A stretch of DNA of 64,000 nt, taken from positions 166,015-230,014 of the forward strand of contig CAWBDA010000004.1 in the NCBI GenBank assembly GCA_963787495.1, read 5' to 3'. This DNA comes from an uncultured Acidobacteriaceae bacterium (lineage in GTDB: Bacteria; Acidobacteriota; Terriglobia; Terriglobales; Acidobacteriaceae). The notes below the pieces were generated by a model. It was not told where the DNA came from and did not search any database. It saw nothing but the letters and a program-made list of their open reading frames with translations. The translations under genes and the position numbers were made by a program. This document shows, piece by piece, positions 16,702 through 59,939 of the stretch (the stretch's first letter is position 1; each line of letters begins with the position of its first letter).

Positions 16702-16829
16702 TCAGTTCTCAGTTCTCAGTTCTCAGTTCTCAGGAAAGCAAAACCCGGAGGCTCGGGGCTGTCAACTTTTGGGCAGGATGACCTTCGGGAAGGCTGAGCG
16801 ACTCTACTGAGAACTGAGAACTGGGAACT
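16702..16829. repeat. inverted heptad-repeat element, CAGTTCT family
   Basis: (TCAGTTC)x4 plus TCAG at 16702-16733. CTGAGAA CTGAGAA CTGGGAA CT at 16807-16829. The arms are complementary with a 73-nt spacer. Confidence 0.95.
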
Positions 16830-16834
16830 CCTCT

Positions 16835-17968
16835 TCACCCGAACATGTCTTTCACTTTGCCCAGCAGAGACCGCATCATCGGCTGATTGTCCACCTTCGC
16901 GGTCGTCTCGAGTTCCTGCAGCAGCTCTTTCTGGCGTTTGCTCAGCTTGCTCGGAATCTGCACCCGCACTTCCACGTAGAGATCGCCCTTGCCGTGTCCA
17001 TTCAACACGGGCACTCCCTTGTTGCGGACGCGAAACGTGGTGCCGGGCTGGGTTCCATCTGGAATCTTGAGCATATGCTCGCCTTCGAGAGCAGGCACGC
17101 GAATCTCCGTGCCCATGGCCGCTTGGGTCACCGATAGCGGGACAACGCAGTGCAGGTCATTCCCTTCCCGAACAAAAAATGGGTGCTCCTTCACATGCAG
17201 CACCAGGTATAGATCGCCCGCGGGCCCTCCGAAAGGTCCGGCTTCGCCGCCTCCCGTGAACCGGATGCGCGTGCCGTCTTCCACTCCCGCCGGAATCTTA
17301 GCGTCGACCGCTCGCTGCCGCAGAAGCCGGCCTTCGCCTTTGCACTTCGGGCAGGGATCGGTGATAACGCTGCCCGTTCCCTGGCAGGAAGGGCAAGTCC
17401 GCGCAATGCTGAAAAAGCCCTGCTGATACCGCACCTGACCGCGACCGGCGCACGAACGGCAGGTTGTAGGACCTTTCCCCGGCGCGGTTCCGGAGCCCTG
17501 GCAATCCTCGCAGGCTTCATGACGGCGCACCAGGATGTGCTTCTCCACGCCGAATGCAGCCTCTTCGAACTCGATGGTTAAGTCTTCGCGCAAATCCGCG
17601 CCGCGCTGCACCCGGCTGCGGCGGCGTCCACTACCTCCCAAGACATCACCAAAGCCGAAAAACTCGCCAAAGATTTCGCCCAGGTCCTGGAAAGGCGTGC
17701 CCTCGAAGCCCCCGCCCGAACTGGCTGCACTTCCCACTCCGGCATGGCCGTAGCGGTCGTAGAGCGACCGCTTCTCGGAGTCGGCCAGTATTGCATAGGC
17801 TTCCGTAACTTCCTTGAACCGCTCTTCCGCATCCGGATTGTTCGGATTCCGATCGGGATGGTACTGCATGGCAAGCTTGCGATAAGCGCTCTTCAGCTCC
17901 TGATCGCTCACCGTACGGCTCACCGACAATACTTCGTAATAATCGCGTTTTGCGTTCGTGGCCAGAAT
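16835..17968 (-). CDS. dnaJ: molecular chaperone DnaJ (start codon non-canonical, see findings)
   Basis: J domain with HPDRN and four CxxCxGxG repeats (CEDCQGSG, CRSCAGRG, CPSCQGTG, CPKCKGEG). The conserved KRDYYEVL lies upstream of the first ATG/GTG/TTG. Confidence 0.9.
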   Translation of the reverse strand: MLATNAKRDYYEVLSVSRTVSDQELKSAYRKLAMQYHPDRNPNNPDAEERFKEVTEAYAILADSEKRSLYDRYGHAGVGSAASSGGGFEGTPFQDLGEIFGEFFGFGDVLGGSGRRRSRVQRGADLREDLTIEFEEAAFGVEKHILVRRHEACEDCQGSGTAPGKGPTTCRSCAGRGQVRYQQGFFSIARTCPSCQGTGSVITDPCPKCKGEGRLLRQRAVDAKIPAGVEDGTRIRFTGGGEAGPFGGPAGDLYLVLHVKEHPFFVREGNDLHCVVPLSVTQAAMGTEIRVPALEGEHMLKIPDGTQPGTTFRVRNKGVPVLNGHGKGDLYVEVRVQIPSKLSKRQKELLQELETTAKVDNQPMMRSLLGKVKDMFG

Positions 17969-18019
17969 AGGCGCCTTTCTTCAATGAAAAAAACTTAAGA
18001 CACTCCAACCCATCGGAAC

Positions 18020-18598
18020 TTACTTCCCATGATTTCTGGCCACCTTCACCATCGCAGGCCGCAGTAGCCGGTCTTTGAACTTGTAGCCGCGCTGCAACTC
18101 CTCAACCACCTGATGATCGGGAGCTTCCGTGGTTTCCACCATTTCGACAGCTTCGTGGAATCGCGGATCAAACTCTTCGCCCTTCGACGCAATGGGATGC
18201 ACCGAAAGCTTGGCCAGCGCCGCCTGCAGCTGCTTGTAAATCAGTTCCACTCCGGCACGCAGTTCGGACGCATCCGACTTCACCTGCAGCGCGCGCTCCA
18301 GGCTATCCACCACCGGCAGCAAGGTCTTGATCGCATCTGCGACGGCGTAATCGCGAAACTCCTGCTGCTCCTTGCCGGCCCGACGGCGCGCATTTTCAAA
18401 CTCCGCTTGCGCGCGCGCCAGCCGGTCGAGCAGCGAATCGCGCTCCGCTTTCAGCTTCTGCAATTCCGATTCTGAGGCCGGAGAGTCCGCGCTCGCCGCC
18501 GCAACGCTGTCATCCCCATCTCCCGCAGTCAGTTCGTGATCCAGGTCCAGCGGAGCTTTCTCTACTTCTGACCTACCGTTTGCTTTAGCCATAAACAA
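18020..18598 (-). CDS. grpE: nucleotide exchange factor GrpE
   Basis: Coiled-coil N-terminal half and C-terminal FDPRFHEAVEMVET...VVEELQRGYKFKDRLLRPAMVKV. Confidence 0.9.
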   Translation of the reverse strand: MFMAKANGRSEVEKAPLDLDHELTAGDGDDSVAAASADSPASESELQKLKAERDSLLDRLARAQAEFENARRRAGKEQQEFRDYAVADAIKTLLPVVDSLERALQVKSDASELRAGVELIYKQLQAALAKLSVHPIASKGEEFDPRFHEAVEMVETTEAPDHQVVEELQRGYKFKDRLLRPAMVKVARNHGK

Positions 18599-18604
18599 CT
18601 GTGA

Positions 18605-19645
18605 TTACTCCGATTCATTCAGAATTTTGTCAAAGAGCCGCGCGATATAAGAAACCGCGGTCATGGTGTGCTGATAATCCATGCGCGTTGGACCAATCAC
18701 CGCCAGCGAGCCAAACATATCAGTTCCCGACCGCGCCGGCGCTCCGATCAACACGAAGTTCTGCATGGAAGGCAAAGCATCATCCAGCCCGATCACCACC
18801 CTTACCGCTTCCTGCTTCACGTCGAGGTAAGCCCCAAGGAGGTTCGCGACTTTTTCCTTCTCCTCGAGAGTCTTCAGCATCTCCTGCAGACGCTTGCGGT
18901 CTTCTTGCCCCGTAACCAGGTTGGCCGCGCCTTCCACGAACACCACCTGCGCGCCGGGTTCGGCGGCGAGCGCGCCTTGCTTGTAGAGTTGCTCGATGGA
19001 GTTCATCAGGCGGTCGTATTCACTACGTTCCTGCTCAATCCTCCGGCCCAACTCTGAGCGCATCGACTCCATCGTCCAGCCACGAAAATTCTCGTTGATA
19101 TAGCGCGCCGCAAGATCCAGCTCGGCCTGCGGCAGATCGAGCCGCAACACACGGTCGCGCACCAAGCCGGAACGCGTTACCAGCACAGCGAGCACTTTCT
19201 GCTCGCCCAGGCGCGAGAAGTAAACATGCTCCAGCGCATTCTTGGCCCCGGTCGTGGCCACGGTCACCCCTACGTTCCGCGAAATCAGCGACAACACATG
19301 CGAGGTGCGCTCCATGAATTCCGGCACATCGGTAATGCCGGCCAGCGAGTCAGAAATCAGGCTTTCTTCCTGCGGCGCCAGCCGCGCCGTTCCCGTAATC
19401 TGCTCGACGTAGTAGCGGTAAGCGTCAGTGGTCGGTACGCGTCCGGACGAGGCGTGGGTCTGCTCCAGAAAGCCCGCGTCTGAGAGGTCCGCCATCACAT
19501 TGCGAATCGATGCCGGACTCAACCCCTCACGGTTCGACCGCGCCAGCGTGCGCGAACCGACGGGCTCGCCCGTGGAAATAAAAGTCTCCACGATCGCCGT
19601 CAGAACTTCGCGTTCGCGCTTGCCGATATTGGGATCAGATGGCAT
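18605..19645 (-). CDS. hrcA: heat-inducible transcription repressor HrcA
   Basis: N-terminal wHTH REREVLTAIVETFISTGEPVGSRTLA. Length and C-terminal domain are typical. Start taken at ATG 19645 (MPSDPNIGK). Confidence 0.9.
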   Translation of the reverse strand: MPSDPNIGKREREVLTAIVETFISTGEPVGSRTLARSNREGLSPASIRNVMADLSDAGFLEQTHASSGRVPTTDAYRYYVEQITGTARLAPQEESLISDSLAGITDVPEFMERTSHVLSLISRNVGVTVATTGAKNALEHVYFSRLGEQKVLAVLVTRSGLVRDRVLRLDLPQAELDLAARYINENFRGWTMESMRSELGRRIEQERSEYDRLMNSIEQLYKQGALAAEPGAQVVFVEGAANLVTGQEDRKRLQEMLKTLEEKEKVANLLGAYLDVKQEAVRVVIGLDDALPSMQNFVLIGAPARSGTDMFGSLAVIGPTRMDYQHTMTAVSYIARLFDKILNESE

Positions 19646-19879
19646 GTTCTGTAAAGGGATCAGCCAGGCTTGCGGCCAGATCACAATCTCCAGCTAAGTA
19701 TTTTAGATGCAGAAACTTACCTTAGGACGCAAATGCCGCGTCCTGCTTGGATTCTAGGAATGCTCCACCTTCCTGTCAAGGACCGCAGGGACCGGCTCCA
19801 CCGCCGAACCTCTACTCCATCTTCCCCTGATACGCCATCCCCCGGTATCCTCAACTCGCAGGTGGCAAAATCATTTGCG

Positions 19880-25705: not shown

Positions 25706-25727
25706 GGCCACTGACCACCGACCACTG
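25706..25727. repeat. orphan heptad arm GGCCACT GACCACC GACCACT G (CAGTGGY family)
   Basis: Three units with no inverted partner within the intergenic region. Ends 4 nt before ATG 25732. Confidence 0.85.
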
Positions 25728-27665: not shown

Positions 27666-29162
27666 ATGCTTCTTCCGCGCACACTGGGCGAATTGCGCCG
27701 CAGCACCTTTTCTGAAGAACGCCTGCGCACCCGCCGCGTGAAGGACGAACTCCGCGACAACCTCATCGCCCGCCTGCGTCACCACGACGATTCCGGCATC
27801 TTCCCTGGCATCGTCGGCTACGACGACACCGTCGTGCCCCAAATCGTGAATGCCGTCCTCTCGCGCCACAATTTCATTCTGCTCGGCCTGCGCGGCCAGG
27901 CCAAAAGCCGCATCCTGCGGGCTCTTACCACGCTGCTCGATCCTCACATGCCTTACCTCACGGGATGCGAGATTCGTGACAATCCCTACGCTCCCATCTG
28001 CCGCCGCTGCCGCGAAGAAGTCGCGCGGCTCGGCGATGCCGCTCTCATTTCTTATCTAACTCCCGACGACCGCTACGTGGAAAAACTCGCCACGCCCGAT
28101 GTAACCATCGCCGACCTGATCGGCGACATCGACCCCATCAAAGCCGCCCGCGGCGGCCACGAACTGTCGAGCGAGTTCACCGTTCACTACGGCCTGCTTC
28201 CCCGCGCCAATCGCGGCATCTTCGCCATCAACGAACTTCCCGACCTCGCCGGGAAAATTCAGGTCGGCCTGTTCAACATTATGCAGGAAGGCGACGTGCA
28301 GATTAAGGGCTATCCCATCCGCCTCCCGCTCGACGTGGCCATCGTCTTCAGCGCCAATCCCGAGGACTATACCGCTCGCGGCAAAATCATCACCCCGCTC
28401 AAAGACCGCATCGGCTCCGAGATTCGCACGCACTACCCGGCGACGGTCGATGAAGGCATCGCCATCACCGCGCAGGAAGCCTGGACCAGCCGCAACGGCC
28501 ATCCCATGCATCTACCCACCTACATTCAGGAAGTAATCGAGCGCATCGCCTTTGCTGCCCGCGAAGACAAGAAAATCGACAAGCGTAGCGGCGTAAGCCA
28601 ACGCCTGCCGATCTCCGCAATGGAGAACGTAATCTCCAACGCCGAGCGCCGCGCGCTGCGCAATGACGAAAAACTCGTGGTGCCACGCGTCAGCGACGTC
28701 TACGCCGCCCTACCCGCCATCACCGGAAAACTGGAACTCGAATACGAGGGCGAAATGAAAGGAGCCGACCACGTCTCCCGCGAACTGATCCGCGCTGCCA
28801 TCGCGAAAACGTACGATGAGTACTTCACCGGCGCTAACGTGCAGCAGATCGTGCAGTGGTTTGATTTAGGCGGCGAGATTCACCTCTCCGATTCCATTGC
28901 CGCGTTGGAAGCGCTAGAAAACCTGAAAGAAATTCAGGGCCTGATCGACAAGCTAGGCCCGCTAGGAGTCTCGCAGAAGGAAAGTCCGGAGCAACAGGTC
29001 TCCGCCGCCGAATTCATCCTCGAAGGCCTGCACGCCCACAAGCGCATCGGCCGCAACGAAGAACGAGTCTTCAAAGCCGGAGAGAAAAAGCCCGAGCCAC
29101 AGCGCGAAAAAAGTTTCGAGAAGGAAGAACCGCCGTATCGGCAGAGAAGGCAGTTTAATTAA
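27666..29162 (+). CDS. MoxR/ChlI-like AAA+ ATPase with deviant Walker motifs
   Basis: GLRGQAKS in the Walker A position and RGIFAINELPDL in the Walker B position, plus a QEGDVQIKG...VFSANPEDY MoxR-like core. Paired with a vWA gene. Confidence 0.8.
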   Translation: MLLPRTLGELRRSTFSEERLRTRRVKDELRDNLIARLRHHDDSGIFPGIVGYDDTVVPQIVNAVLSRHNFILLGLRGQAKSRILRALTTLLDPHMPYLTGCEIRDNPYAPICRRCREEVARLGDAALISYLTPDDRYVEKLATPDVTIADLIGDIDPIKAARGGHELSSEFTVHYGLLPRANRGIFAINELPDLAGKIQVGLFNIMQEGDVQIKGYPIRLPLDVAIVFSANPEDYTARGKIITPLKDRIGSEIRTHYPATVDEGIAITAQEAWTSRNGHPMHLPTYIQEVIERIAFAAREDKKIDKRSGVSQRLPISAMENVISNAERRALRNDEKLVVPRVSDVYAALPAITGKLELEYEGEMKGADHVSRELIRAAIAKTYDEYFTGANVQQIVQWFDLGGEIHLSDSIAALEALENLKEIQGLIDKLGPLGVSQKESPEQQVSAAEFILEGLHAHKRIGRNEERVFKAGEKKPEPQREKSFEKEEPPYRQRRQFN

Positions 29163-29234
29163 GTGGTCAGTGGCCAGTGGCCAGTCAAAGCCATTAGGCG
29201 TCAGGTTTTACTGATCACTGACCACTGGCCACTG
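29162..29234. repeat. inverted heptad-repeat element, CAGTGGY family
   Basis: AGTGGTC AGTGGCC AGTGGCC AGTC at 29162-29186. ACTGATC ACTGACC ACTGGCC ACTG at 29210-29234. 23-nt spacer. Confidence 0.95.
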
Positions 29235-35927: not shown

Positions 35928-36033
35928 GCTCTTTGCATTGCACGCCAGGCACCACTACCGCTGACATTGAAAAGACGTGGGTTAGACTGCGACGCCGATG
36001 CGCTGTTCCCATTACAGAACGGAAAAGCAGCTC

Positions 36034-36115
36034 TCAGTTCCCAGTTCTCAGTTCTTGGTTCTCAGCAAGACCACCTTTGCCAACCTGAGAACTGGGAACT
36101 GAGAACAGAGAACTG
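36034..36115. repeat. inverted heptad-repeat element, CAGTTCT family
   Basis: TCAGTTC CCAGTTC TCAGTTC TTGGTTC TCAG at 36034-36065. CTGAGAA CTGGGAA CTGAGAA CAGAGAA CTG at 36085-36115. 19-nt spacer. Confidence 0.95.
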
Positions 36116-47173: not shown

Positions 47174-48580
47174 ATGAGCCACGAAAAAGTACTGATTGTC
47201 GAGGACGAAGAGAACGAACGCACGGGTCTGGCTGAGTTGGTTTTTTCCTGGGGATATCGGGCCGAAACTGCCCGGGACGGTATGGAAGGCCTGGAGAAGG
47301 CGGCGCAATGGGTCCCCTCCATTGTAATCACCGATCTCAAGATGCCGCGCATGGGGGGCATCGAACTGCTCGAACGGCTGGGCGAGCAATCCGAGGCCAT
47401 GGCCGTGATTCTGGTGACGGCGCAGGGGACAATCGACAGCGCAGTGCAGGCCATGCGCATGGGCGCGTATGACTACATCACCAAACCCATCGATACCAAC
47501 CGCCTGCGCACCATGCTGCAAAATGCGTCCACCCTGGTGGGAACTCGCGCCGAGCTGGAGACCGCCCGCCGCAAGCTGCGGGATTCCGGCTCGCTGGGCA
47601 CACTCCGCGGAGCGTCGCGCAAGATGCAGGAGATTTTCCGGCTCATCGAGCTGGTTTCACCCAGCACCGCGTCAGTGCTGATTACCGGAGCCAGCGGCAC
47701 AGGAAAGGAGTTAGTGGCTCGCACCATCCATCAACTGAGTCCGCGCCGCGAGCGGCCCTTCGTCGCCATCAACTGCGCGGCCATTCCTGAAACGCTGATC
47801 GAAAGCGAGATCTTCGGCCACGAAAAAGGCGCCTTCACCGGAGCTCTGGAGCGGCGCACCGGCTGTTTCGAGCTAGCCGAAGGCGGGACGATCCTGCTCG
47901 ACGAAATTGGGGAAATGCCGGTAGGAACCCAGGCCAAGCTGCTGCGCGTGCTCGAGGATCACAAGCTGCGCCGCTTGGGGAGCAAAGTGGAAACCTCGGT
48001 GGATGTGCGCGTGCTGGCTGCCACGAATAAAGTTCCCGACGATGCTGTCGCCAGCGGGGAATTGCGCAGCGATCTCTACTACCGGCTCAACGTGTTCAAC
48101 ATCCACATGCCTCCCTTGCGAGAACATAAGGAAGATATCGCCGATCTGGTGCAGCTGCTTCTGTCGGAAATGAGCGCCAAGCACTCCCGTAAGGTTGCTG
48201 CCGTCAGCGAGGCCGTGCTGAATCAGTTCAACAATTATTCCTGGCCGGGAAACGTCCGCGAATTGCGCAATACGATCGAACGCGCCGTAATCGTCTGCGA
48301 CAGCGGCATGATCGAAACCAAACACCTGCCTCCTGGGTTCGGCCACGCGCCCCTGCGCACGGCCGCGAATGATCCGGATGCGGTGCGTCTGGGCGTGGGC
48401 ACCACCGTCGGTGAAGCGGAAAAGATGCTGATCCTTAAAACCCTGGAGGCCACCAGCAACAACAAGACGAAAGCCGCGGAAATTCTCGGCATCAGCCTGA
48501 AAACCCTGCATAATAAGCTAAAGGAGTACGGCGGCAACGCCCCGGAAGCGGCCTCTGACAAAGAAGAGCAACCGCAGTGA
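47174..48580 (+). CDS. sigma54-dependent response regulator (NtrC family)
   Basis: Receiver VLIVEDEENERTGL, GASGTGKE, GAFTGA, C-terminal HTH KTKAAEILGISLKTLHNKLK. Confidence 0.9.
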   Translation: MSHEKVLIVEDEENERTGLAELVFSWGYRAETARDGMEGLEKAAQWVPSIVITDLKMPRMGGIELLERLGEQSEAMAVILVTAQGTIDSAVQAMRMGAYDYITKPIDTNRLRTMLQNASTLVGTRAELETARRKLRDSGSLGTLRGASRKMQEIFRLIELVSPSTASVLITGASGTGKELVARTIHQLSPRRERPFVAINCAAIPETLIESEIFGHEKGAFTGALERRTGCFELAEGGTILLDEIGEMPVGTQAKLLRVLEDHKLRRLGSKVETSVDVRVLAATNKVPDDAVASGELRSDLYYRLNVFNIHMPPLREHKEDIADLVQLLLSEMSAKHSRKVAAVSEAVLNQFNNYSWPGNVRELRNTIERAVIVCDSGMIETKHLPPGFGHAPLRTAANDPDAVRLGVGTTVGEAEKMLILKTLEATSNNKTKAAEILGISLKTLHNKLKEYGGNAPEAASDKEEQPQ

Positions 48581-48675
48581 TCAGTGTCCAGTGGTCAGTG
48601 GCCAGCGGAAAACTTTGCACCACGTCGTCACCTTCCCCACATCCGCTTAGACTGACCACTGACCACTGACCACTG
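48575..48675. repeat. inverted heptad-repeat element, CAGTGGY family
   Basis: CAGTGAT CAGTGTC CAGTGGT CAGTGGC CAGCGG at 48575-48608. (ACTGACC)x3 plus ACTG at 48651-48675. Confidence 0.95.
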
Positions 48676-48681: not shown

Positions 48682-50554
48682 ATGCGACGCAAAACCATCA
48701 TCGTGCTCGGCATCACCTTCATGGTGACAGTGATGGTGACCGCGTTCTCCTATCTCTACATCTCGCAGATCCTTCGCCAGCGCATCACCAATGCCTATGA
48801 AAGTGCCAGCCGCCTGACCCAGCAACTGGCCTACTTCGCCGGAAATGACCTGCCGGATTTGAGCAGCACCCGCATCGACACCAATGACCCCGCGGCGGTT
48901 CGGCGTGCTCTGGCCGAATACCTGCCGATGGATACCAACATCCTGAACAATCTGGAATCCGAGGTCGCGCTTTGGCCCTTCATCTACGATGCTTCCATCG
49001 TGGACGCGAACGGTAAGGCGCTCCTCCACACCAATCGTCAACTCGTGGGCAAGCAAGTTGTCCCACGGTTGGATTTTCGCACTGTGATGACTGCTCGCTC
49101 CCTGGACCAGCTCCGCCTGGTATACCTCCCTGCCAAAGTCTACGATGTAAGCTTCCCGCTGCAGTTGAACGGAGCGCCCTTCGGCACGATTCACATCGGC
49201 GTTTCCACAGTCTTTCTCCAGAGTGAAATTACCCCGCGTCTGATGCACGCCCTTTATTTCTCGATCGCGTCGATTTTCGCTTCTCTGTTGCTCGCTGCCG
49301 GCGTGTCGAATCTCGCTCTCGGACCGCTCAAGAAAATCAGCCGCAACCTGGATAGCGTCAGTTCCGGGGCAACCGAGGCACTCTCTGGAAACGAGTCGGA
49401 ACACGATGAATTCGGCTTGGTCACACTGAAAATCGCCAATCTGGGCCGGCAGATGCGCGACAGCCGGGAGATTTTCTCCGCACTGAAGGACAACGTGGAC
49501 CAGCTCATGTCGAAGTTGCAGGACGGCCTGATGCTGTTCGCGCGAGACAGCCGCGTGGTGCTGGTGAGTGCGCCGGTAGAGCGCTTCCTCGGCCGCCCCC
49601 GCGGAGAGCTGCTGGGCGGAACGGTGAAGGAAGTCTTCTCCGGAGACACGCCGCTCGAAGCCACAGTGCTGGATGCTTTTGAACACCGGCGCACTCTTTC
49701 GCAGCGCGAGTTCGTCGCGCCCGCCGGCAGGCGCGTCCAGGTCTCTTTGGATTTTGTTCAGGAAAAAAATACTCAGATCGGGGCCTTGCTGATCATGCGC
49801 GACGCCGAGTCGGTGCGCCGCATCGGAGACGAAATCGAGATGTCCCGCCGCCTCTCCGCTAGCGGACGCGTAACCGGCGGTGTCGCCCACGAAGTAAAGA
49901 ATCCCATCAATGCCATCGTCTTGCATTTGCAGCTGCTGCAGAACAAGCTGGCACAACTGGATCCCGATACCCGCCGCCATATGGACATCATCGGCAGCGA
50001 GATTCACCGGCTCGACCGCGTGGTGCAAACCCTGGTCGACTTCATGCGGGCTCGCGAGCTGCATCTGGTGGAAGTGGATTTCCGCCGCGTGCTCGAGGAA
50101 GTCGCGCTGCTCGCCGCTCCCGACGCGGAGCAGCATGGCGTCACCATCCAGCGTGACCTGCCGGCGGAGCCGCTGCCCATTAAGGCCGACCTGGACTTCA
50201 TGAAGCAGGCCCTTCTCAATGTCGTTCTGAACGGGATCCAGGCCATGCCTCAGGGAGGCCAACTTTCCATCACGGCGCGGCGCGACCGACAATGCCGCGG
50301 TCGCCGAGATCCGCGACCGGGGCATGGGCATTGCTCATGACGTGCAGGACAAGATTTTTGAGCTTTACTTCACCACAAAGAAAGACGGCAACGGCATCGG
50401 CCTGGCCCAGACTTACCAGATCTTGCAGTGGCACTACGGATCAGTGGAATTTGAATCGCGGGAAAGTGAGGGCTCGATGTTCCGTTTTCGCCTTCCGCTG
50501 GCCACCTCGAGCCTGCACTCGGAACACGAGGCTGCCGCCCACTTGAACCAGTGA
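48682..50554 (+). pseudogene. membrane HAMP/PAS sensor histidine kinase split by a frameshift inside the ATPase domain
   Basis: H-box HEVKNPINAI and N-box LLNVVLNGIQAM are in the frame of ORF 48682. The G1/G2 boxes IRDRGMGI and DGNGIGLA are in the frame of ORF 50324. The switch is near GACCGAC at 50284-50290. Confidence 0.65.
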
Positions 50555-50631
50555 TCTTGCTCAGAACTGATGTTTTCAGGCGCGCTTCGAAGCGTAAGAT
50601 TCAAGTAGCTTCGCCGCACAATGGATTCGAT

Positions 50632-51483
50632 ATGAATCTGGCCGCAATCCTCGGTTTTTGTCTGTTGAGCGCAGGTTGGTTACCGCCAGCCGCCCGCGGA
50701 ACTGTGCCGCAAACCGCAGGCCAGCCGCCCGCAGCGACCTCCTCAGACTCGTCCACTCAGCAGAGCCAGAGCCCCTCCGCGTCTCAACCACAGGCGCCCC
50801 CGGCGCAAAGCGCCGAGCCTACACAACCTGCGCCTTCTCCAACCAACGAAACTCCGAATTCCCCAGCGCAGGCCAAGCCGACTCCAGCAAAGCCCCGGCA
50901 TCATAAGAAAGCCGATTCGAATTGCTCGAACGCCCCAACTGCGCTGAATACTGCAGTAGGCAAGCCCGCCGATTCGCCGAATTCAGCGGATGCCGGCGCG
51001 GACAATGCATCGAACAACGCTGGCTCGATCAATCCCGAGTCGAACAGTCCTGAGTCGAACAATGCCGCGTCGAACAATGCCGCGTCGAACAATCCTGGGT
51101 CGACCGATCCTGGGTCAACCAATTCTGGGTCAACCAATTCTGGATCAAAGAATCCAGACTCTGCCGCCCTGAAACCTTGTCCGCCACCCAAAAAAGTTGT
51201 CCGCAACGGAGGATCGAACGAACCCAAGGTTCAACTAACCGGCGGCACAACTGCCCAACAGGCCGCAAATAAGTCCTCGACCGAGCAACTCAGAGCCGCC
51301 ACCGAAGAGAACCTGAAGAAAGCCGCAGGACTCCAACTCAACCCCAGCCAGAAGGAGATGGTAAGCCAGATCAAGCAGTTCATGGAACAATCAAAAGCAG
51401 CCGTCGCCGCAGGGGACCTGGAGCGCGGCCACAATCTCGCCCTGAAAGCTCAATTGCTTTCCGACGAGTTGGTCAAACCCTGA
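50632..51483 (+). CDS. secreted low-complexity (P/Q/S/N-rich) protein with pentapeptide repeats
   Basis: Signal peptide MNLAAILGFCLLSAGWLPPAARG. Eight 15-nt units at 51031-51150 encode NxxSN-type repeats. Helical C-terminus. Confidence 0.5.
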   Translation: MNLAAILGFCLLSAGWLPPAARGTVPQTAGQPPAATSSDSSTQQSQSPSASQPQAPPAQSAEPTQPAPSPTNETPNSPAQAKPTPAKPRHHKKADSNCSNAPTALNTAVGKPADSPNSADAGADNASNNAGSINPESNSPESNNAASNNAASNNPGSTDPGSTNSGSTNSGSKNPDSAALKPCPPPKKVVRNGGSNEPKVQLTGGTTAQQAANKSSTEQLRAATEENLKKAAGLQLNPSQKEMVSQIKQFMEQSKAAVAAGDLERGHNLALKAQLLSDELVKP

Positions 51484-53681: not shown

Positions 53682-53769
53682 AGGTCACCTCAGCCTCGGC
53701 GAGAATGGATCTCCACATCCGAACAGCAGGCGAATCCTAGCTCCGAATGCGTGTGGAAGCAAGGAGAAC

Positions 53770-53854
53770 CAGTGGTCAGTGTCCAGTGGTCAGTGATCAA
53801 TAAAGCCCTCAATCAACGAGAGCGTTTCACTGGCCACTGGCCACTGACCAATGG
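53770..53854. repeat. inverted heptad-repeat element, CAGTGGY family
   Basis: CAGTGGT CAGTGTC CAGTGGT CAGTGAT CA at 53770-53799. CACTGGC CACTGGC CACTGAC CAATGG at 53828-53854. 28-nt spacer. Confidence 0.95.
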
Positions 53855-55279: not shown

Positions 55280-56050
55280 ATGTCTTCTGACCTGCAAGGC
55301 CGTAACGGCGTCGTTTTCGGAGTCGCCAACAAGCGCTCGATTGCCTGGTCCATCGCCCAGGGACTGCACGCCGCGGGCATGAAGCTGGCGATCACCTACC
55401 AGAACGAGCGCCTGGAGCAGGAAGCCAAAGACCTCATCCTCTCCCTGCCCGGAGCCCAGGGCTACATGTGCGACGTCAGCAAAGACGAAGAAATCGACCG
55501 CCTCTTCGCCACCCTCAAAGAACGTCACGGCAAGCTCCACACTCTGGTGCACTCCGTAGCCTACGCTCCCGCCGACGAACTGAAAGGGGAATTCCTAAAC
55601 ACTACGCGCGAGGGCTTCCGCGTCGCGCTCGATGTCAGCGTATATTCGCTGGTCGCGGTTGCCCGTGCCGCAGCCCCGCTCATGGAAGATGGCGGTTCCA
55701 TCATCACCATGACCTACTACGCTTCCGAGAAAGTCGTGCCTCGCTACAACGTGATGGCCGTAGCCAAGGCTGGTCTGGAGTGCTCGGTGCGCTATCTTGC
55801 GTATGAACTAGGAAAGAAGAAGATTCGTGTGAACGCCATCTCCGCTGGCCCCATCAAGACCCTCGCCGCCCGCGGCATCGCCGGCTTCGGCGACATGCTC
55901 AAAGGCCACGAAGAACGTGCCCCGCTGGGCCGCCGCGTGGAAGTAGAAGAAGTCGGCTCGACAGGAGTATTTCTAGCCTCCGACGCCAGCAGCGGCATCA
56001 CCGGCGAAGTCATTTATGTCGACTGCGGCTACAACATCATGGGATTTTGA
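55280..56050 (+). CDS. fabI: enoyl-[acyl-carrier-protein] reductase (NADH)
   Basis: GVANKRSIAWSIAQ, and YNVMAVAKAGLE (Y-x6-K). AAGGAG before ATG 55280. Confidence 0.93.
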   Translation: MSSDLQGRNGVVFGVANKRSIAWSIAQGLHAAGMKLAITYQNERLEQEAKDLILSLPGAQGYMCDVSKDEEIDRLFATLKERHGKLHTLVHSVAYAPADELKGEFLNTTREGFRVALDVSVYSLVAVARAAAPLMEDGGSIITMTYYASEKVVPRYNVMAVAKAGLECSVRYLAYELGKKKIRVNAISAGPIKTLAARGIAGFGDMLKGHEERAPLGRRVEVEEVGSTGVFLASDASSGITGEVIYVDCGYNIMGF

Positions 56051-56080
56051 ATCCAGGTCTCAGTTCTCGGTTTTCTTCTG

Positions 56081-56881
56081 CTACCGCATCAAAAACGAGA
56101 ATCCGTCGAACAAATATTCGTGCTTCCCATCCTTGGCCACCGGTTTCACTTCTCCACGACGTACCTGCTGGATCGCAGCAACCACCTTCGGAAGATAGCT
56201 GGGGTCGGCGACCGGCACATTGTGTGAAGGCAAGAGAAGTTGAACGCGAGGCGCCAGCGCAGCCAGTTTCTGCATCGACGCTACATAAGCGTCCAGATCC
56301 GTTTCCGGACGGTATAGATAGATCGGGCCAAGATAGAAGCTATCTCCCGTAAACAAAAGCCCGTTCTTATCGTCCAGCAGCGCGATAGCGTCGGGCGTAT
56401 GGCCGGGCGTGCCGATTACCTTCAGCGTGCGCCCACCCAAATCAATCTTGTCGCCATCGTGCAGCCAGTGCGTGATGTGGAATGGTTTGGTCGCGTACGC
56501 CTTCGCGTCGAACCCCGCTGGCAAAGTTCCGCAAATTTCGCCTGGAGCAAGTTCGGCTTGCGCGTCTTCTTTCGATCCGCCGGCGTTGGCCCGGGTGAAA
56601 TCCGTATCCATGCCATAGACATCGCGGAACCGCCAGTTGTCCCCAACGTGGTCGTTGTGAGTATGCGAATTCACCACGCTCACTGGAAGCTTGGTTAATC
56701 CTGCAACCACAGCCTGGATATTGCTGATGCCCATGCCGGTGTCGAACAGCAGCGCTCTGTCGCGGCCGATGACCAAATATGAAATGACCTCTTCCAGTTG
56801 GTGCGGTTCGTAGATCGCGAATATGCCTGGGCGAATCTTGTACACCTCGAACCAGGTATCCGCAGTTGGAACCCGCTCCAA
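56081..56881 (-). CDS. MBL-fold metallo-hydrolase (core; N-terminus probably frameshifted, see findings)
   Basis: HTHNDHVGD (HxHxDH) and GTPGHTPD. The in-frame sequence is open and protein-like upstream of the TTG at 56881. Confidence 0.8.
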   Translation of the reverse strand: MERVPTADTWFEVYKIRPGIFAIYEPHQLEEVISYLVIGRDRALLFDTGMGISNIQAVVAGLTKLPVSVVNSHTHNDHVGDNWRFRDVYGMDTDFTRANAGGSKEDAQAELAPGEICGTLPAGFDAKAYATKPFHITHWLHDGDKIDLGGRTLKVIGTPGHTPDAIALLDDKNGLLFTGDSFYLGPIYLYRPETDLDAYVASMQKLAALAPRVQLLLPSHNVPVADPSYLPKVVAAIQQVRRGEVKPVAKDGKHEYLFDGFSFLMR

Positions 56882-57015
56882 CTTGCTGTAAGCCGGACGG
56901 GGCAGCTTCTTGCACCACTCGGCCTGTGGGCAGCCAGAGAGGGCGTCAGACCGATTGTGAGGAACGTCGCCAGGAACAAGTTGTTGAGGCTCTTCATAAA
57001 CAGCTCACGGATGGT

Positions 57016-57441
57016 CTAACTCAGGATTCTGATCTTACGTTCATTCTCGCTCTGACGTTCCAAAGCAATCTCCACATCCCGCTCCCGCAGCAACCGCGGA
57101 AACTTCTCTCCCCACTCGATCAGCAAAACGCTGCCCTCGGCACGCAGATCATCGAGTCCGAGCGTTTCCAATTCCCGCGGAGTATCCACCCGGTAAAGAT
57201 CAATGTGATAGAGGTTGGCGCGCGGCCCGCGATATTCATGCACCAGCGTGAAGGTGGGACTGGTGACGTCTTCTTCTTCCGCCGCCCCAAAGCCAGCGGC
57301 GATTCCCTTGACCAGCGTGGTTTTTCCCGCCCCAAGATCGCCCCGCAGCAGAACCAGCTTGGGCGGCGCGAGCAGCTCCGTCAGGGTGCGCCCGAAGGCA
57401 ATGGTTTCCTCGGCCGAGCGTGTGGTGATCTCCCGCGTCAT
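57016..57441 (-). CDS. tsaE: tRNA t6A biosynthesis ATPase TsaE
   Basis: LLRGDLGAGKTTLVKGI P-loop, SPTFTLVHEY, and HIDLYR. Confidence 0.9.
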   Translation of the reverse strand: MTREITTRSAEETIAFGRTLTELLAPPKLVLLRGDLGAGKTTLVKGIAAGFGAAEEEDVTSPTFTLVHEYRGPRANLYHIDLYRVDTPRELETLGLDDLRAEGSVLLIEWGEKFPRLLRERDVEIALERQSENERKIRILS

Positions 57442-57524
57442 CTCGACCAGTATAGCGAGAGCGCCAGGGCAGAAAGTTAGCAGGTTCCGGAAAAACTCAC
57501 GAAAGCATCCAGTAACGTGGAAGA

Positions 57525-57575
57525 GCGGCGCTTTCAGCGCCGCGTCGACGCCATAAACATCGCGGGCTTCAGCCC
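57525..57575. repeat. pair of GC-rich TTCA-loop hairpins
   Basis: GCGGCGC-TTTCA-GCGCCGC (57525-57543) and GGGC-TTCA-GCCC (57564-57575). Confidence 0.65.
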
Positions 57576-57596
57576 CTGTGGTCGAATGCCTGCCTA

Positions 57597-57992
57597 CTAG
57601 ATCGTCCGCGGCACGTTAAACGCGGACGACTTCAGTCCCAGCAGACTCCGGTCCGTCACCTGGTCGAGCGAAGTACGCAAGCGGCGGTTGTCGTCATCCT
57701 CGAGCGCGACAAAGCGAAACGCCTGCAGCACACAATTCGTAGCCTTCTGCATGGGAGTTAGTATCTCCGCCATGCCGCGCACCGGGCCCGATTGCGTATG
57801 AAAGGCAACTTCGACGAAATCGCCCTCGGCCAGCGGACGCGGCAGTAACAGCAGTCCGCCCGTCGCCGAAATGGTTTGGAGTTTTGCTTTAGCGTGCCGG
57901 CCGTCTTCTAATCGAATCGCAGCCAGAACAGATGCTCCCAGCTGGACTCGGGCCGCGCGCCGCGAAGGATGCGGTTGGGGGAAGTGGGTCAT
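57597..57992 (-). CDS. PilZ-like domain protein
   Basis: RRAAR (RxxxR) followed about 25 aa later by TISATGG (approximate D/NxSxxG). Confidence 0.55.
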   Translation of the reverse strand: MTHFPQPHPSRRAARVQLGASVLAAIRLEDGRHAKAKLQTISATGGLLLLPRPLAEGDFVEVAFHTQSGPVRGMAEILTPMQKATNCVLQAFRFVALEDDDNRRLRTSLDQVTDRSLLGLKSSAFNVPRTI

Positions 57993-58201
57993 AAGCTATA
58001 TGCACTATGCGCCCCTTCGAAACCAGTAACAAGTTACGGAAGCAGAGTGACCGGATTCCCATGTCAGACAAGGGTTTAAGCCCAATAACCCCCACCTCAC
58101 CAAGCACATAGAAGTTGTTAACGGATGTGCTAATGTCCCACAGGACGATCAAGACGGCCCAACCGGACTCCCCTGGGCGCGCCAGTTGCCGCACCAGCCG
58201 T

Positions 58202-59764
58202 TCACCAACGCACAAGCTTTTCCCGCGCCGCTTCCTGAGTTCGTCGAAACGCTTCAGGAAGCCCTTGCAGAAGGTCAGTCGCCACCAGCGAATGCTCGCC
58301 CACTCTTTCCCGCATCACATCGCCGGCAAGTCCGTGCAGATGCACGGCGGCCAGCACCGCCAGAAAAGCGCTAGTCGAATGCTGCGCGATCATTCCCGCA
58401 ACCATCCCCGTCAAGATGTCCCCCGTGCCCCCGGTAGCCATGCCGGGATTGCCCGTCGTATTCACCCAGGCTTCACCGTCCGGCTGCACCACCAGCGTGC
58501 GATGCCCCTTCAGCGCCACGATAAGCTCGTGCTCGCGCGCGAACTTCCGCGCCGTACCCAACCGATCTTTCTGCACATCAGCAATGGTGCATCCGGCCAG
58601 CCGAGCCATCTCGCCCGGATGAGGCGTGATCACCAGCGTCCGCCCCGCGCCCTTCAATTCACCCGCGCGTCCCTCAAAAGCATTCAGGCCGTCAGCGTCC
58701 AAAACCACGGGGAGCCGAAGTCGCACAACTAAACTCCTCACCAGCTCTGCAGTCTGCGTATCCCGCGAAATCCCCGGCCCAATCGCGAGCACGGTCTTCC
58801 CTTCCGTCAACTCCTCGATGCGATCCAGCGCGTTTTTCGAGATCGTGCCCACATCAGTCTCGGGCAAGGGCTCAGTCATTAACTCGGTATGAAATCCGGC
58901 CACGGTTCCCAAAGCCGACTTCGCCGTTGCCACCGTCGAGAGTCCCGCGCCCGCGCGAAGCACAGCCATTCCCGCCATGGCCGCCGCTCCAGCCTTTCCG
59001 AGCGCCCCGCCGACCACCAGCACATGCCCGTAATTTCCCTTGTTCGACTCTGCCGGACGCGGCCCGATCAACCCTCCAATATCACGCGCCGTGATCACAT
59101 TCAGTCGCAGCGCCGAAACAATCGCCTCCTCCGGCGAACCGATGCCAGCCACAACAGTGGGCCCCCCAGTCAACATGCTGAACACATGAGCCGGACGAGG
59201 CGCAGTAAAAGTAACAACCTCATCGGCCCGGGCAATCGTCCCAGCTTGCGGACCCATCGCGTCCGCATCTGCGCCCGAAGGAATGTCTACCGCGATCACT
59301 GGAATCTGACTCGCATTCATGATCGCGATCGCTTCGGCATAGAGCCCGCTCACCGGAGGTTTGAAACCCGTGCCAAGCACCGCATCGATGTACAGGTCGG
59401 CCTCCAGCGAGAGCCGCACCTGCTCGCTCCTCAACTCTTCGCTGGAATGCACGGCGATTGCAGGGGACGGCAGTTTGCCAAACATGACAGCCGCATCGCC
59501 GCGCAAATCGGCGGAGTCCGCCAGCACGATCACCTGCACTTTCTTTCCTCGATCGTGCAGCCGCCGCGCCACCACAAAACCATCACCGCCGTTATTCCCT
59601 CTGCCGCAGAAAACCACAATCCGTCCAGCCGCAGCATGGCGCGAGAGCACGTAGTCAGCGACCGCCGCACCGGCGTTCTCCATCAGCGTGAGCGAAGGTA
59701 CCCCAAAGCGCTCGCTGGTAGCGCGGTCAATAGCTCGCATCTCTTCAGCAGAAACGATTTTCAT
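58202..59764 (-). CDS. nnr: bifunctional NAD(P)H-hydrate epimerase/dehydratase
   Basis: N-terminal YjeF_N MKIVSAEEMRAIDRATSERFGVPSLTLMENAG and C-terminal kinase-like GGTGDILTGMVAG. Confidence 0.9.
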   Translation of the reverse strand: MKIVSAEEMRAIDRATSERFGVPSLTLMENAGAAVADYVLSRHAAAGRIVVFCGRGNNGGDGFVVARRLHDRGKKVQVIVLADSADLRGDAAVMFGKLPSPAIAVHSSEELRSEQVRLSLEADLYIDAVLGTGFKPPVSGLYAEAIAIMNASQIPVIAVDIPSGADADAMGPQAGTIARADEVVTFTAPRPAHVFSMLTGGPTVVAGIGSPEEAIVSALRLNVITARDIGGLIGPRPAESNKGNYGHVLVVGGALGKAGAAAMAGMAVLRAGAGLSTVATAKSALGTVAGFHTELMTEPLPETDVGTISKNALDRIEELTEGKTVLAIGPGISRDTQTAELVRSLVVRLRLPVVLDADGLNAFEGRAGELKGAGRTLVITPHPGEMARLAGCTIADVQKDRLGTARKFAREHELIVALKGHRTLVVQPDGEAWVNTTGNPGMATGGTGDILTGMVAGMIAQHSTSAFLAVLAAVHLHGLAGDVMRERVGEHSLVATDLLQGLPEAFRRTQEAAREKLVRW

Positions 59765-59769
59765 AAGAA

Positions 59770-59939
59770 CAATGGCCAGTGTTCAGCGGCGAGTGATCAG
59801 TAAAACAAGTTAACGGCATAGGCTTTGTAACGGTCACTGACCACTGGCCACTAACTTTCGACTATAAAACAAAGGCCCTCCGCGCTGTGCGAAGGGCGTT
59901 TGACTTTGCTGGCCACTGGCCACTGATCACTGGCCACTG
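59770..59939. repeat. three-arm heptad-repeat element, CAGTGGY family
   Basis: CAATGGC CAGTGTT CAGCGGC GAGTGAT CAGT at 59770-59801. GGTCACT GACCACT GGCCACT at 59832-59852. GGCCACT GGCCACT GATCACT GGCCACT G at 59911-59939. Confidence 0.95.
59865..59898 (-). terminator. rho-independent terminator of the APC permease gene
   Basis: Minus strand: GCCCTTCGCACAGCGCGGAGGGC hairpin followed by CTTTGTTTTA. Lies about 30 nt after the stop. Confidence 0.65.

Follow-up and report, generated by a model that had tools for sequence, protein, structure and literature searches.

STRR hairpins have been described between hupS and hupL, with suggested roles in transcript stability or translational coupling (PMC2670836). 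GGGAATC repeats occur as convergent inverted pairs of fixed strand polarity that adjoin stop as well as start codons, and they are depleted between divergent genes (Rehm 2015, PMC4692102). In Beggiatoaceae, arrays of TAACTGA finish a few nucleotides ahead of start codons that lack a Shine-Dalgarno (SD) sequence, 132 of 170 sets being directed at a start, and a role in SD-independent ribosome loading or standby has been proposed for them (MacGregor 2015, PMC4679880). That study also summarises a slippage proposal by Mrazek for 7-mers. In the 5'-UTR of H. influenzae hmw, a hairpin of (ATCTTTC)n was shown experimentally to be processed by RNase III (PMC12721329). The earlier note on the DNA analysed here knew of no functional description of such arrays; their class is, as these reports document, already published (PMC4692102, PMC4679880, PMC2670836).

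The 64-kb stretch analysed here (the window) contains heptanucleotide arrays at all seven loci pointed out before, far above chance: CAGTGGYCAGTGGY is matched 20 times with at most one mismatch (0.07 expected) and CAGTTCTCAGTTCT 9 times (0.01 expected). ACTG-N3-ACTG is present in 28 copies; a spacing of 10, the two-unit harmonic, is found 19 times, and the remaining spacings occur 0-5 times each. Tandem Repeats Finder reported the paired arms as period-7 arrays, and the lone arm was found by matching of the unit motif (Table 1). The proposed anatomy of two unit families with a common CAGT core and inverted arms was recovered, and so was the lack of relatedness between spacers, which share at most 7 nt among the window loci; the pairs are therefore not MITE copies, in agreement with the earlier note. 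Two further, weaker loci beyond the original seven follow the same boundary rule. The arrays are very probably dispersed STRR/LSSR-type heptanucleotide simple-sequence repeats of an acidobacterium near Candidatus Sulfotelmatobacter. The host is a soil acidobacterium, and the usual form of the arrays is two mirror-image runs between genes.

Table 1. Array arms and associated features in the window. TRF, period-7 array in Tandem Repeats Finder, at the same coordinates unless given.
Feature	Coordinates	Strand	Description	Detection
Extra locus	231..259	+	(ACCGAGT) x4, GAGT-core variant; ~8-10 nt past TAA stop (220-222)	
Pre-start arm, rsmE	16702..16733	-	minus sense (GAACTGA) x4.6; 3 nt ahead of ATG (16698)	TRF
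Post-stop arm, dnaJ	16806..16829	-	minus sense AGTTCCCAGTTCTCAGTTCTCAGT; 5 nt past stop (16835-16837)	TRF
Lone pre-start arm, TPR gene	25706..25727	+	GGCCACTGACCACCGACCACTG; 4 nt ahead of ATG (25732); no partner arm	unit motif, outside TRF list
Post-stop arm, AAA+ gene	29162..29185	+	GTGGTCAGTGGCCAGTGGCCAGT; 0 nt from TAA (29160-62)	TRF
Pre-start arm, vWA gene	29210..29234	+	ACTGATCACTGACCACTGGCCACTG; 3 nt ahead of ATG (29238)	TRF
Distal arm	36028..36065	-	AGAACTG type, minus sense; next minus-strand ORF start ~100 nt on (35927)	TRF
Post-stop arm, sigma-54 response regulator	36085..36115	-	CAGTTCT type, minus sense; 4 nt past stop (36120-22)	TRF
Post-stop arm, sigma-54 response regulator	48575..48605	+	TGA stop (48578-80) within first CAGTGAT unit	TRF
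Pre-start arm, histidine kinase	48651..48675	+	(ACTGACC) x3.6; 6 nt ahead of ATG (48682); TGA in 3/3 frames	TRF
Divergent-region arm	53769..53797	-	ACTG sense on minus, toward TPR gene (start 53681, 88 nt off)	TRF, 53769-95
Divergent-region arm	53828..53854	+	ACTG sense on plus, toward MFS gene (ATG 53884, 29 nt off)	TRF
Extra locus	56051..56080	+	degenerate CAGGTCT CAGTTCT CGGTTTT (CAGKTCT x3); ~3 nt past fabI stop; takes up all 30 nt that separate fabI (stop 56048-50) from the convergent metallo-beta-lactamase-fold gene (stop 56081-83)	
Degenerate pre-start arm, nnr	59774..59800	-	minus sense ACTGATCACTCGCCGCTGAACACTGGCC; 5-9 nt ahead of ATG (59764)	TRF
Third, inner arm, 59.7 kb locus	59833..59853	-	minus sense TAGTGGCCAGTGGTCAGTGAC; able to pair with nnr-proximal arm	
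Intrinsic-terminator-like hairpin	59875..59897	-	GCCCTTCGCACAGCGCGGAGGGC then CTTTGTTTT; between outer arms of 59.7 kb locus	
Post-stop arm, APC permease	59909..59939	-	stop (59927-29) within CAGTGAT unit, minus sense	TRF

Flanking genes were identified by Pfam as rsmE, dnaJ, a TPR gene, an AAA+ gene, a vWA gene, two sigma-54 response regulators, a histidine kinase, nnr and an APC permease. These identities agree with those given before, the AAA+ gene having only a weak match of the sigma-54-interaction/AAA+ type (E 7e-4, under the curated cut-off). In the direction that leads away from the adjoining ORF, the unit is CAGTGGY or CAGTTCT, and the array lies a few nucleotides from the ORF end; the mRNA carries (CAGTNNN)n past the stop codon and its complement, (NNNACTG)n, ahead of the start codon. 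The post-stop arm had been placed 0-5 nt from the stop codon or across it, which holds for dnaJ, the AAA+ gene and one regulator on the one hand and for the other regulator and the permease, with the stop inside a CAGTGAT unit, on the other. A distance of 3-6 nt between pre-start arm and start codon likewise stands for rsmE, the TPR gene, the vWA gene and the histidine kinase; for nnr it becomes 5-9 nt, the value depending on whether a degenerate ATTG unit is counted. All five of these starts lack a 4-mer SD sequence, in line with the lack of a GGAGG-like motif stated in the earlier note, yet this does not distinguish them, because only about 24% of the called window starts carry one.

Adjacency to ORF boundaries extends beyond the window. 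We compared 121 sequences (0.95 Mb) from many phyla, with gene boundaries outside the window taken from our own codon-score ORF caller. Among simple-sequence repeats, period 7 dominates with 148 arrays, compared to at most 8 for any other period between 4 and 12. The ACTG-core unit of the window recurs in many phyla, and the same genomes hold many unrelated heptad families. Of 170 intergenic arrays, 92 have their ACTG 3' end no more than 15 nt from a stop (69) or start codon (23), and 13 have the opposite end at such a distance; where an ATG follows within 12 nt of an array, 24 cases are sense and 4 antisense. About two thirds of the arrays across phyla are unpaired and follow the identical polarity (38 post-stop, 14 pre-start). 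All 35 inverted pairs are laid out CAGT..ACTG, which follows automatically from the polarity rule of single arrays: two arrays of fixed polarity in one short intergenic region are necessarily convergent and able to pair. Of 31 classifiable pairs, 21 lie between co-directional genes. Seven pairs are located between convergent genes and one between divergent genes; arrays were found in 6.9% of divergent, 18.5% of co-directional and 25.5% of convergent intergenic regions.

These counts bear on the idea that the pre-start arm alone is functional, as an unstructured, A/C-rich site of SD-independent ribosome loading or standby, with the post-stop arm being incidental. In five genes of the window, as in many genes of other phyla, (NNNACTG)n ends 3-12 nt before an SD-less ATG, in line with the core, orientation and position of the start-directed TAACTGA sets, and comparison of the regulator-kinase locus of the window with the orthologue L035 shows stronger conservation of the pre-start than of the post-stop arm. 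Post-stop arrays are nevertheless the commoner ones, also when unpaired arrays are considered by themselves; moreover, arrays are depleted in divergent regions, where only starts occur, and SD absence is common in the window anyway. We regard this idea as improbable.

A further feature of polarity is that YAG-N4 stands on the strand that leads away from the ORF in 35 of 49 unit families, against 7 for the complement; with CAGT relatives excluded, the figures are 19/32 and 5/32. The core positions of the unit are invariant and positions 5-7 variable, the typical arm has 3-5 units, and within each genome a few unit families are common to many loci. By analogy to HutP, the arrays might be periodic sites for a multimeric protein that binds single-stranded nucleic acid and recognises a short core at 7-nt intervals; once bound to the post-stop (YAG-N4)n arm, such a protein would compete with formation of the hairpin and thereby decide what becomes of the downstream cistron. 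Just past the hutP stop codon, HutP contacts three XAG motifs with 4 nt between them and reads only A and G of (XAG-N4)3 on each trimeric face; the intercistronic terminator there has this site at its 5' side (PMC2425495). However, neither HutP nor TRAP nor another periodic RNA binder is encoded by the window ORFs, YAG does not occur in Xanthomonas GGGAATC, and pre-start arms, which present the complement on the mRNA, would not be bound. Protein binding therefore appears distinctly unlikely.

As had been suggested, the paired arms are able to form stems. Predicted RNA hairpins of the window pairs have folding energies of -45 to -84 kcal/mol (z-scores -3.3 to -9), with imperfect stems of 25-35 bp and loops of 19-108 nt. 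Our best guess, which we would rate at somewhat below an even chance, is that a hairpin acts post-transcriptionally, as punctuation, where two cistrons meet. With both arms on one transcript, an imperfect double-stranded stem of 25-35 bp would form, the base of which would clamp together the stop codon of the upstream gene and the SD-less start region of the gene that follows. The stem could act as a 3' stabiliser for the upstream cistron or as a processing site for an RNase III-type enzyme. It would also occlude the downstream start region until the stem is removed by cleavage or opened by a ribosome that terminates 0-5 nt from its base; the A/C-rich, G-poor pre-start arm may then serve as an unstructured landing site for ribosomes. 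The predominance of co-directional pairs (21/31), the depletion in divergent regions, the folding energies and the hmw precedent for RNase III processing argue for such a hairpin. Against it stand the unpaired arrays, the one divergent pair, distant orthologues without arrays and the 59.7 kb locus, where the outer arms bracket a canonical intrinsic-terminator-like hairpin and thus may never share one transcript.

The hairpin as the selected unit is weakened by several observations. Unpaired arrays show the same polarity; folding is not biased towards the sense strand (sense versus antisense 10 vs 10, with 69 vs 67 G-U pairs; 13 vs 9 in a second comparison); unit numbers of the two arms do not correlate among orthologues (rho 0.22, p 0.32); and RNAalifold found no covariation (covariation term +0.53). 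Inverted, intergenic arms past stop codons, T-rich tails behind several arms and the seven pairs between convergent genes might also be expected of mobile-element copies (a MITE or REPIN-like doublet) or of plain Rho-independent terminators. Both are scarcely tenable: spacers are unrelated, arm lengths vary independently, unpaired arrays are common, the window has no transposase or RAYT gene, and the arms are tandem 7-mers instead of a fixed REP of 20-40 nt. As terminators, stems and loops of the predicted sizes would be unusual, most pairs lie inside apparent operons, and the 59.7 kb locus already has its terminator between the arms.

The window is orthologous to loci of Sulfotelmatobacter and other Acidobacteriota MAGs, which carry arrays at the same sites with differing unit counts, persisting over 72-86% DNA identity. 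At the regulator-kinase locus, for which 80 orthologues were compared, arrays are limited to close relatives and vary freely in unit number; intergenic regions measure 88-152 nt with arrays and 17-67 nt without. Since distant orthologues have none, coupling of this gene pair does not require arrays. The close relatives L130 and L141 have lost theirs, lineages L125 and L195 carry other heptad families at the orthologous site, and CCAGTGGCTAA or CCAGCAGCTAG is already present at the C-terminus of the ancestral regulator. The intergenic regions of two loci whose flanks are 94% identical differ in length by 46 nt. Arrays were thus very probably gained in a recent clade, within ancestrally short (~45 nt) intergenic regions, and unit numbers change fast, presumably by replication slippage.

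Such turnover could mean that slippage, to which 7-base units would be intrinsically prone, generates the arrays as by-products that are for the most part neutral or mildly selfish. They would nucleate at unit-like sequences near ORF ends, such as the ancestral regulator C-terminus, and persist where and in whichever orientation they are harmless, the hairpin being a side effect of two arrays in one intergenic region, each directed at the gene on its own side. Clade-specific gain and loss, the many unrelated families, the automatic 35:0 layout and the absence of covariation, strand asymmetry and arm-length correlation from the pairs are in line with this account, as is the Mrazek proposal as summarised in PMC4679880. 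Slippage by itself does not account for a defined array end 0-6 nt from ORF boundaries or for YAG-N4 on the ORF-leaving strand; the retention of sites across divergent genomes and the recurrence of an ACTGA core across phyla (PMC4679880) also speak against it. We consider this account somewhat unlikely. The repeat-derived hairpin at cistron boundaries, taken whole, remains our tentative explanation, rated a little short of even odds.

This kind of array is already known, with cyanobacterial STRRs, Xanthomonas/Nostoc GGGAATC and Beggiatoaceae TAACTGA as examples. The window arrays share polarity, convergent pairing and stop adjacency with Xanthomonas/Nostoc GGGAATC; YAG, absent from the Xanthomonas repeat, is present in most unit families of our sample. 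With TAACTGA of Beggiatoaceae they have core, orientation and position in common, and the ACTGA core recurs across phyla.

Tandem Repeats Finder reports arrays at each of the seven positions for which the earlier note had claimed a tandem 7-nt unit, with a period of 7 and 3.4-5.4 copies per array. Within the window, CAGTGGYCAGTGGY is matched 20 times with at most one mismatch, compared to 0.07 matches expected from shuffled sequences, and CAGTTCTCAGTTCT is matched nine times, compared to 0.01 expected. The spacing ACTG-N3-ACTG occurs 28 times, while all other spacings, the two-unit harmonic excepted, occur 0-5 times. Including two weaker loci (see table), the window-only scan yields nine heptad loci within 64 kb and 52 intergenic regions. 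The inverted pairing described before was likewise found, six of the seven loci being inverted pairs. Moreover, the argument that the loci differ from a MITE holds: they have no conserved internal sequence, as the spacers are unrelated (19-108 nt long, at most 7 nt in common), and their arm lengths vary independently.

By direct sequence inspection, with the flanking genes confirmed with Pfam, we could also reproduce the positional pattern. The proximal (post-stop) arm either contains the stop codon of the upstream gene or begins 0-5 nt behind it for dnaJ, the AAA+ gene, both sigma-54 regulators and the APC permease, and the ATG codons of rsmE, the TPR gene, the vWA gene, the histidine kinase (HK) gene and nnr lie 3-9 nt past the distal (pre-start) arm. 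The earlier note had furthermore attached importance to the lack of a Shine-Dalgarno (SD) sequence at these five starts. Indeed no SD is present at any of them, but as only about a quarter of the called window starts have one, this argument counts for little.

The 59.7 kb locus, i.e. the intergenic region between the APC permease gene and nnr, proved to be more complex than previously described, holding inside its outer arms both a third arm and a hairpin that resembles an intrinsic terminator. The heptad hairpin between dnaJ and rsmE marks the end of the hrcA-grpE-dnaJ heat-shock operon (15979-19684, minus strand; Pfam HrcA, GrpE and DnaJ). At many loci, among them window positions 29207-29216 and the comparison loci L007, L037, L080 and L103 (L-numbers denote loci from other genomes or metagenomes), the innermost ACTG-sense unit reads TTTACTG or TTAACTG and hence resembles TAACTGA; in the opposite sense such an array ends in CAGTAAA or CAGTTAA. 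Arrays of GAGTACC/TAGTACC, resembling the GAGT-core array of the window, were seen in L051, L059 and L067. Two further tandem repeats with longer units are included in the table.

Additional repeat features located in the window
Feature	Position	Strand	Context
Intrinsic-terminator-like hairpin GCCCTTCGCACAGCGCGGAGGGC, then CTTTGTTTT	59875-59897	minus	Between the outer heptad arms of the 59.7 kb locus; kept in the L003 orthologue
(ACCGAGT) x4, GAGT-core array, weaker heptad locus	231-259		Starts about 8-10 nt past the TAA stop at 220-222; same post-stop polarity
Degenerate CAGGTCT CAGTTCT CGGTTTT, weaker heptad locus	56051-56080		Follows the fabI stop directly, by the same rule; occupies the 30 nt that separate convergent fabI (stop 56048-50) from a metallo-beta-lactamase-fold gene (stop 56081-83)
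15-nt tandem repeat CACGAAACTCTTGTG, 4.2 copies, 97% matches	6328-6390		GTGCAC formed at each junction; located 16 nt beyond the stop codon of an Mg-chelatase-like (ComM/ChlI family) gene, 6406-8001(-)
15/30/45-nt coding repeats giving a low-complexity S/N/P-rich tract (..NNASNNAGSINPESNSPESNNAASNNAASNNPGSTDPGSTNSGSTNSGSKNPDS..)	51010-51155		In ORF 50551-51483, whose protein is Pfam-less

A scan with CACTGRYCACTGRYCACTG, using one genome per species, returned at least 120 loci. Among the matches listed, most belong to Acidobacteriota, while Planctomycetota, Chloroflexota, Verrucomicrobiota, Cyanobacteria, Nitrospirota and further phyla are also represented; these matches include GTCACTG arrays in Scytonema and Cyanothece genomes. 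Three of the listed loci align with parts of the window as orthologues, with a DNA identity of 72-86%; two of them are labelled Candidatus Sulfotelmatobacter, which places the window in an acidobacterium from that neighborhood. In relatives, the arrays occupy the identical intergenic site at all four comparable loci, with differing unit numbers and point changes (alignments with L035, L100 and L003).

To describe the arrangement of the arrays relative to genes we used a 0.95-Mb sample, in which an array was defined as at least three ACTG cores at period 7 and genes were called by our own codon-score ORF caller. This sample contains 198 arrays. In all 35 inverted pairs, whichever strand is read, the CAGT arm precedes the ACTG arm, the opposite layout being absent. 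For 69 of the 170 intergenic arrays the 3' end of the ACTG strand lies within 15 nt of the stop codon of an opposite-strand gene, which in the gene sense corresponds to STOP-(CAGTNNN)n, and for 23 it lies within 15 nt of a same-strand start; the other array end is equally near an ORF boundary in only 13. Unpaired arrays, few of which have even a weak partner arm, follow the same polarity (38 + 14 versus 7). As the 35:0 ratio already follows from this polarity of single arrays, the inverted layout may be a consequence of the rule and not its point. Pairs lie between co-directional genes in 21 cases, convergent genes in 7 and divergent genes in 3, and the fraction of intergenic regions that carry an array of any unit rises from divergent (6.9%) over co-directional (18.5%) to convergent ones (25.5%).

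The phenomenon extends beyond the ACTG core. When tandem repeats with periods of 4-12 were counted in the sample genomes, period 7 accounted for 148 arrays and every other period for at most 8; many of the heptad families in these genomes lack an ACTG core. The strand reading away from the adjacent ORF is predominantly G+T-rich, both for ACTG-core arrays (74:13) and for other arrays (23:7). A G+T ('keto') excess fails as a rule for the CAGAAGN families, which are in turn covered by a YAG rule: YAG is found on the ORF-leaving strand in 35 of 49 unit families, versus 7 for its complement, and after removal of CAGT relatives still in 19 of 32, versus 5 of 32. Taken together, these data suggest a sample-wide rule that holds across unit sequences, according to which a defined array end abuts the ORF, YAG-N4 lies on the leaving strand and pairs are all convergent. 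Convergent pairs of other families were also observed in relatives, namely TTGATTG/CAATCAA in L154 (3389-3477) and CAGATTG/CAATCTG in L171 (6498-6579), both with the G+T-rich arm first.

The evolution of the arrays was followed at the regulator-kinase locus, which comprises a sigma-54 response regulator and a histidine kinase. With the histidine kinase as query, a scan of metagenomes provided 80 orthologous loci with 66-90% amino-acid identity. Hereby, arrays are restricted to the closer relatives (roughly at least 77% identity), where the regulator-kinase intergenic region spans 88-152 nt, compared to 17-67 nt (median 43.5 nt) in array-less relatives; two close relatives, L130 and L141, lack arrays. 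Within the arrayed clade the regulator C-terminus has changed from ..VPSS* to ..Q(T/P)Q*, with the first CAGTGAT unit providing the stop codon, and CCAGTGGCTAA is already present at the regulator C-terminus of some array-less relatives. Inverted pairs of other heptad families occur at the orthologous site as well in further Acidobacteria lineages, i.e. TAGGGAT/ATCCCTA in L125 (2400-2493) and CGATTKC/CAATCGR in the distant L195 (2395-2490). Between L139 and L140, whose flanks are 94% identical, the intergenic region differs by 46 nt. The reading in which the spacer is the ancestral intergenic sequence was set aside: local alignment of the two gives a mean score of 11.85, compared to 11.26 for shuffles, and an ACCTTC..CGCAC motif is shared. 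In three orthologues (L158, L159 and L169), three to four 14-nt tandem copies of a ATTGCGACGAACAG-like sequence are located some 60 nt ahead of the kinase start and duplicate the start-codon sequence ATGCTGCGACGA of the kinase; these repeats look as if the start region itself had been the seed for slippage.

Three NNACTGA units place TGA in all three frames, and CAGTGGY likewise places GTG in all three, as would be expected of a barrier of stops across three frames or of a 'ribosome relay' on GUG/UGA. As a general rule this reading has to be rejected, as CAGTTCT contains no start codons and both CGATTKC (seen here) and GGGAATC (published) contain neither stops nor starts.

The arm pairs are predicted to form RNA hairpins of -45 to -84 kcal/mol (z-scores of -3.3 to -9) with stems of 25-35 bp and loops of 19-108 nt. 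An intrinsic terminator, for which a short GC-rich stem, a loop of 3-8 nt and a U-tract are expected, can be dismissed on these dimensions. A terminator consensus scan flags the inner hairpin of the 59.7 kb locus and apical sub-hairpins, never arm pairs; as its number of matches equals the shuffle expectation, the scan is informative for the inner hairpin alone. Folding is not asymmetric between the sense and antisense strand, neither in 20 co-directional pairs (10 versus 10; G-U pairs 69 versus 67) nor in 22 orthologues (13 versus 9). Moreover, arm unit numbers of orthologues are uncorrelated (rho = 0.22). Covariation was not found in an alignment of nine orthologues (RNAalifold term +0.53), in which the register of the repeat arms is ambiguous and the few double changes fall on R/Y positions that are already variable. 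At the 59.7 kb locus, one arm pair brackets a terminator. In conclusion, four tests, concerning folding strand, arm number, covariation and the bracketed terminator, give no sign of selection on the hairpins. An origin of the arrays that is largely neutral and driven by slippage is doubtful in our judgement, yet nearly as likely as the mechanism we favor.

This favored mechanism, our best guess, is a tentative one and its elements are meant jointly. Co-transcribed arm pairs would form dsRNA that punctuates the space between cistrons and serves stability or processing; the arm pair would occlude the SD-less start region, and ribosomes terminating at the base of the stem would lift this occlusion. 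The gene-boundary polarity and the YAG-N4 regularity are accounted for by none of the models. By analogy with HutP one may also conceive, as a distinctly improbable reading, that heptad arrays are the cis sites of a widespread, hitherto unrecognized gene-boundary punctuation system. A multimeric protein of HutP-like geometry would read the mirror polarity of the arrays, in which YAG-N4 repeats lie on the ORF-leaving strand across unrelated unit families and phyla. Such a candidate protein would sample a 2-3 nt core every 7 nt and would decide on the pairing of the post-stop arm with the pre-start arm; this choice would in turn set processing, stability and translational coupling of neighboring cistrons genome-wide.

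Acidobacteriota are a dominant soil phylum, and here the architecture known from other heptad repeats appears at about one locus per 7 kb in the window, at housekeeping operons including hrcA-grpE-dnaJ-rsmE and two-component systems. If the rule reflects function, it would point to a general way in which SD-poor lineages punctuate polycistronic mRNAs; if mutation is behind it, the mutational process is unusually ordered and still needs explanation. In both cases gene callers and operon predictors should allow for the arrays, which supply stop codons and, inside operons, stretch intergenic distances of about 45 nt to some 125 nt.

Knowledge of heptanucleotide repeats in cyanobacteria dates back to 1990; they were subsequently reported from Xanthomonas and Beggiatoaceae. 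We know of no established function for them except at one Haemophilus virulence gene, and H. influenzae hmw is to our knowledge the sole case in which the mechanism of a heptamer-array hairpin has been dissected experimentally. Rfam 15 gave no match at the gathering threshold over the whole window, and the exact repeat strings were not found in the searchable literature. REP elements are fixed imperfect palindromes of 20-40 nt with a GTAG or CGTC head that are mobilized by RAYT transposases. The window arrays resemble REPs and REPINs as dispersed intergenic inverted doublets with hairpins after genes, and a role in mRNA stability has been proposed for REPs. However, the window arms are variable-number tandem 7-mers without a GTAG or CGTC head and no Y1 transposase (RAYT) gene was found among the window ORFs scanned with Pfam, which makes this assignment very unlikely. 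Mimicry of the anti-SD region of 16S rRNA (GAUCAC) and a Chi-like reading were dropped, as they suit too few units and the families are too diverse; a sigma-54 promoter is contradicted by the spacing, and integron attC sites by the conserved synteny of the loci, which are core genes.

The classical units of the cyanobacterial STRRs are CCCCAGT, TTGGTCA and CAACAGT. Two of these three contain CAGT, and TTGGTCA differs by one base from GTGGTCA. STRRs have been described in heterocystous cyanobacteria and, like the window arrays, consist of 7-bp tandem units able to form hairpins between co-transcribed genes, but their arrays are often much longer and the stop/start polarity seen here is outside their definition. 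Such STRR hairpins have been noted in the hupS-hupL intergenic region, where they are suggested to stabilize the transcript or to couple translation (PMC2670836).

The direct repeat TAACTGA, present in marine Beggiatoaceae as well as in some Cyanobacteria and Bacteroidetes (MacGregor 2015, PMC4679880), comes in arrays of 2-6 units that stop about one to a few nucleotides before SD-less starts. The window arrays share with them the ACTGA core, the sense orientation and the position at SD-less starts (rsmE, TPR, vWA, HK and nnr); the window units are GAACTGA, one base from TAACTGA, and CCACTG(A/G), of which CCACTGA is two bases away. In Beggiatoaceae, nearly all are single direct arrays aimed at start codons, with one inverted repeat in 170 sets (PMC4679880), whereas the window loci are mostly inverted pairs and post-stop arrays are commonest across phyla. 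With only the core of the unit in common and six of seven loci inverted, the window arrays do not belong to the TAACTGA class proper.

In the 5'-UTR of H. influenzae hmw1A, the transcribed heptameric SSR (ATCTTTC)n forms one arm of a long hairpin that is cleaved by RNase III; this single phase-variable virulence locus has at least 10 units and a second arm that is non-repetitive and G-rich (PMC12721329). The window arrays, too, are predicted to contribute a heptamer arm to a long hairpin adjoining a start region, but the hmw1A repeat does not form a genome-wide family at housekeeping genes. HutP binds (XAG-N4)3 just past the hutP stop codon at the B. subtilis hut terminator (PMC2425495), and the post-stop arms similarly read (CAG-N4)3-5 on the sense strand, on the 5' side of an intercistronic hairpin. 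The HutP site may be viewed, by analogy, as a precedent in geometry for recognition of a core at 7-nt intervals. In contrast to the window arrays, it is a single operon-specific site with a dedicated regulator and no tandem identity beyond XAG; no HutP-family protein was found among the window ORFs scanned with Pfam.

Xanthomonas carries heptamers of GGGAATC and Nostoc heptamers of GGGGA(T/C)T, for which no function is known; they typically form arrays of about 4 units in hundreds of dispersed intergenic copies, and each genome holds 70-75 convergent inverted pairs (Rehm et al. 2015, PMC4692102). Co-directional genes have more of these arrays between them, and divergent ORFs fewer; one repeat strand coincides with the coding strand where an array directly follows or overlaps a stop codon, and with the non-coding strand where an array closely precedes an ORF, and loci are kept in related species with variable unit numbers (PMC4692102). 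The window arrays share the tandem 7-nt units, the polarity, the convergent pairs, the depletion between divergent genes and the variable unit number. They differ in their CAGTGGY/CAGTTCT units, in the phylum and in the pre-start arm ending just 3-6 nt from the ATG. As these units lack G-tracts, they have no G-quadruplex potential, and the G-richness or G-quadruplex reading of Rehm and co-workers does not apply. With tandem units, dispersed copies, ORF-end polarity, convergent pairs and cross-species loci, the window arrays are an instance of the known, itself unexplained heptanucleotide SSR class (STRR/LSSR/GGGAATC-type), to which they add the occurrence in Acidobacteriota and the CAGTGGY and CAGTTCT units.
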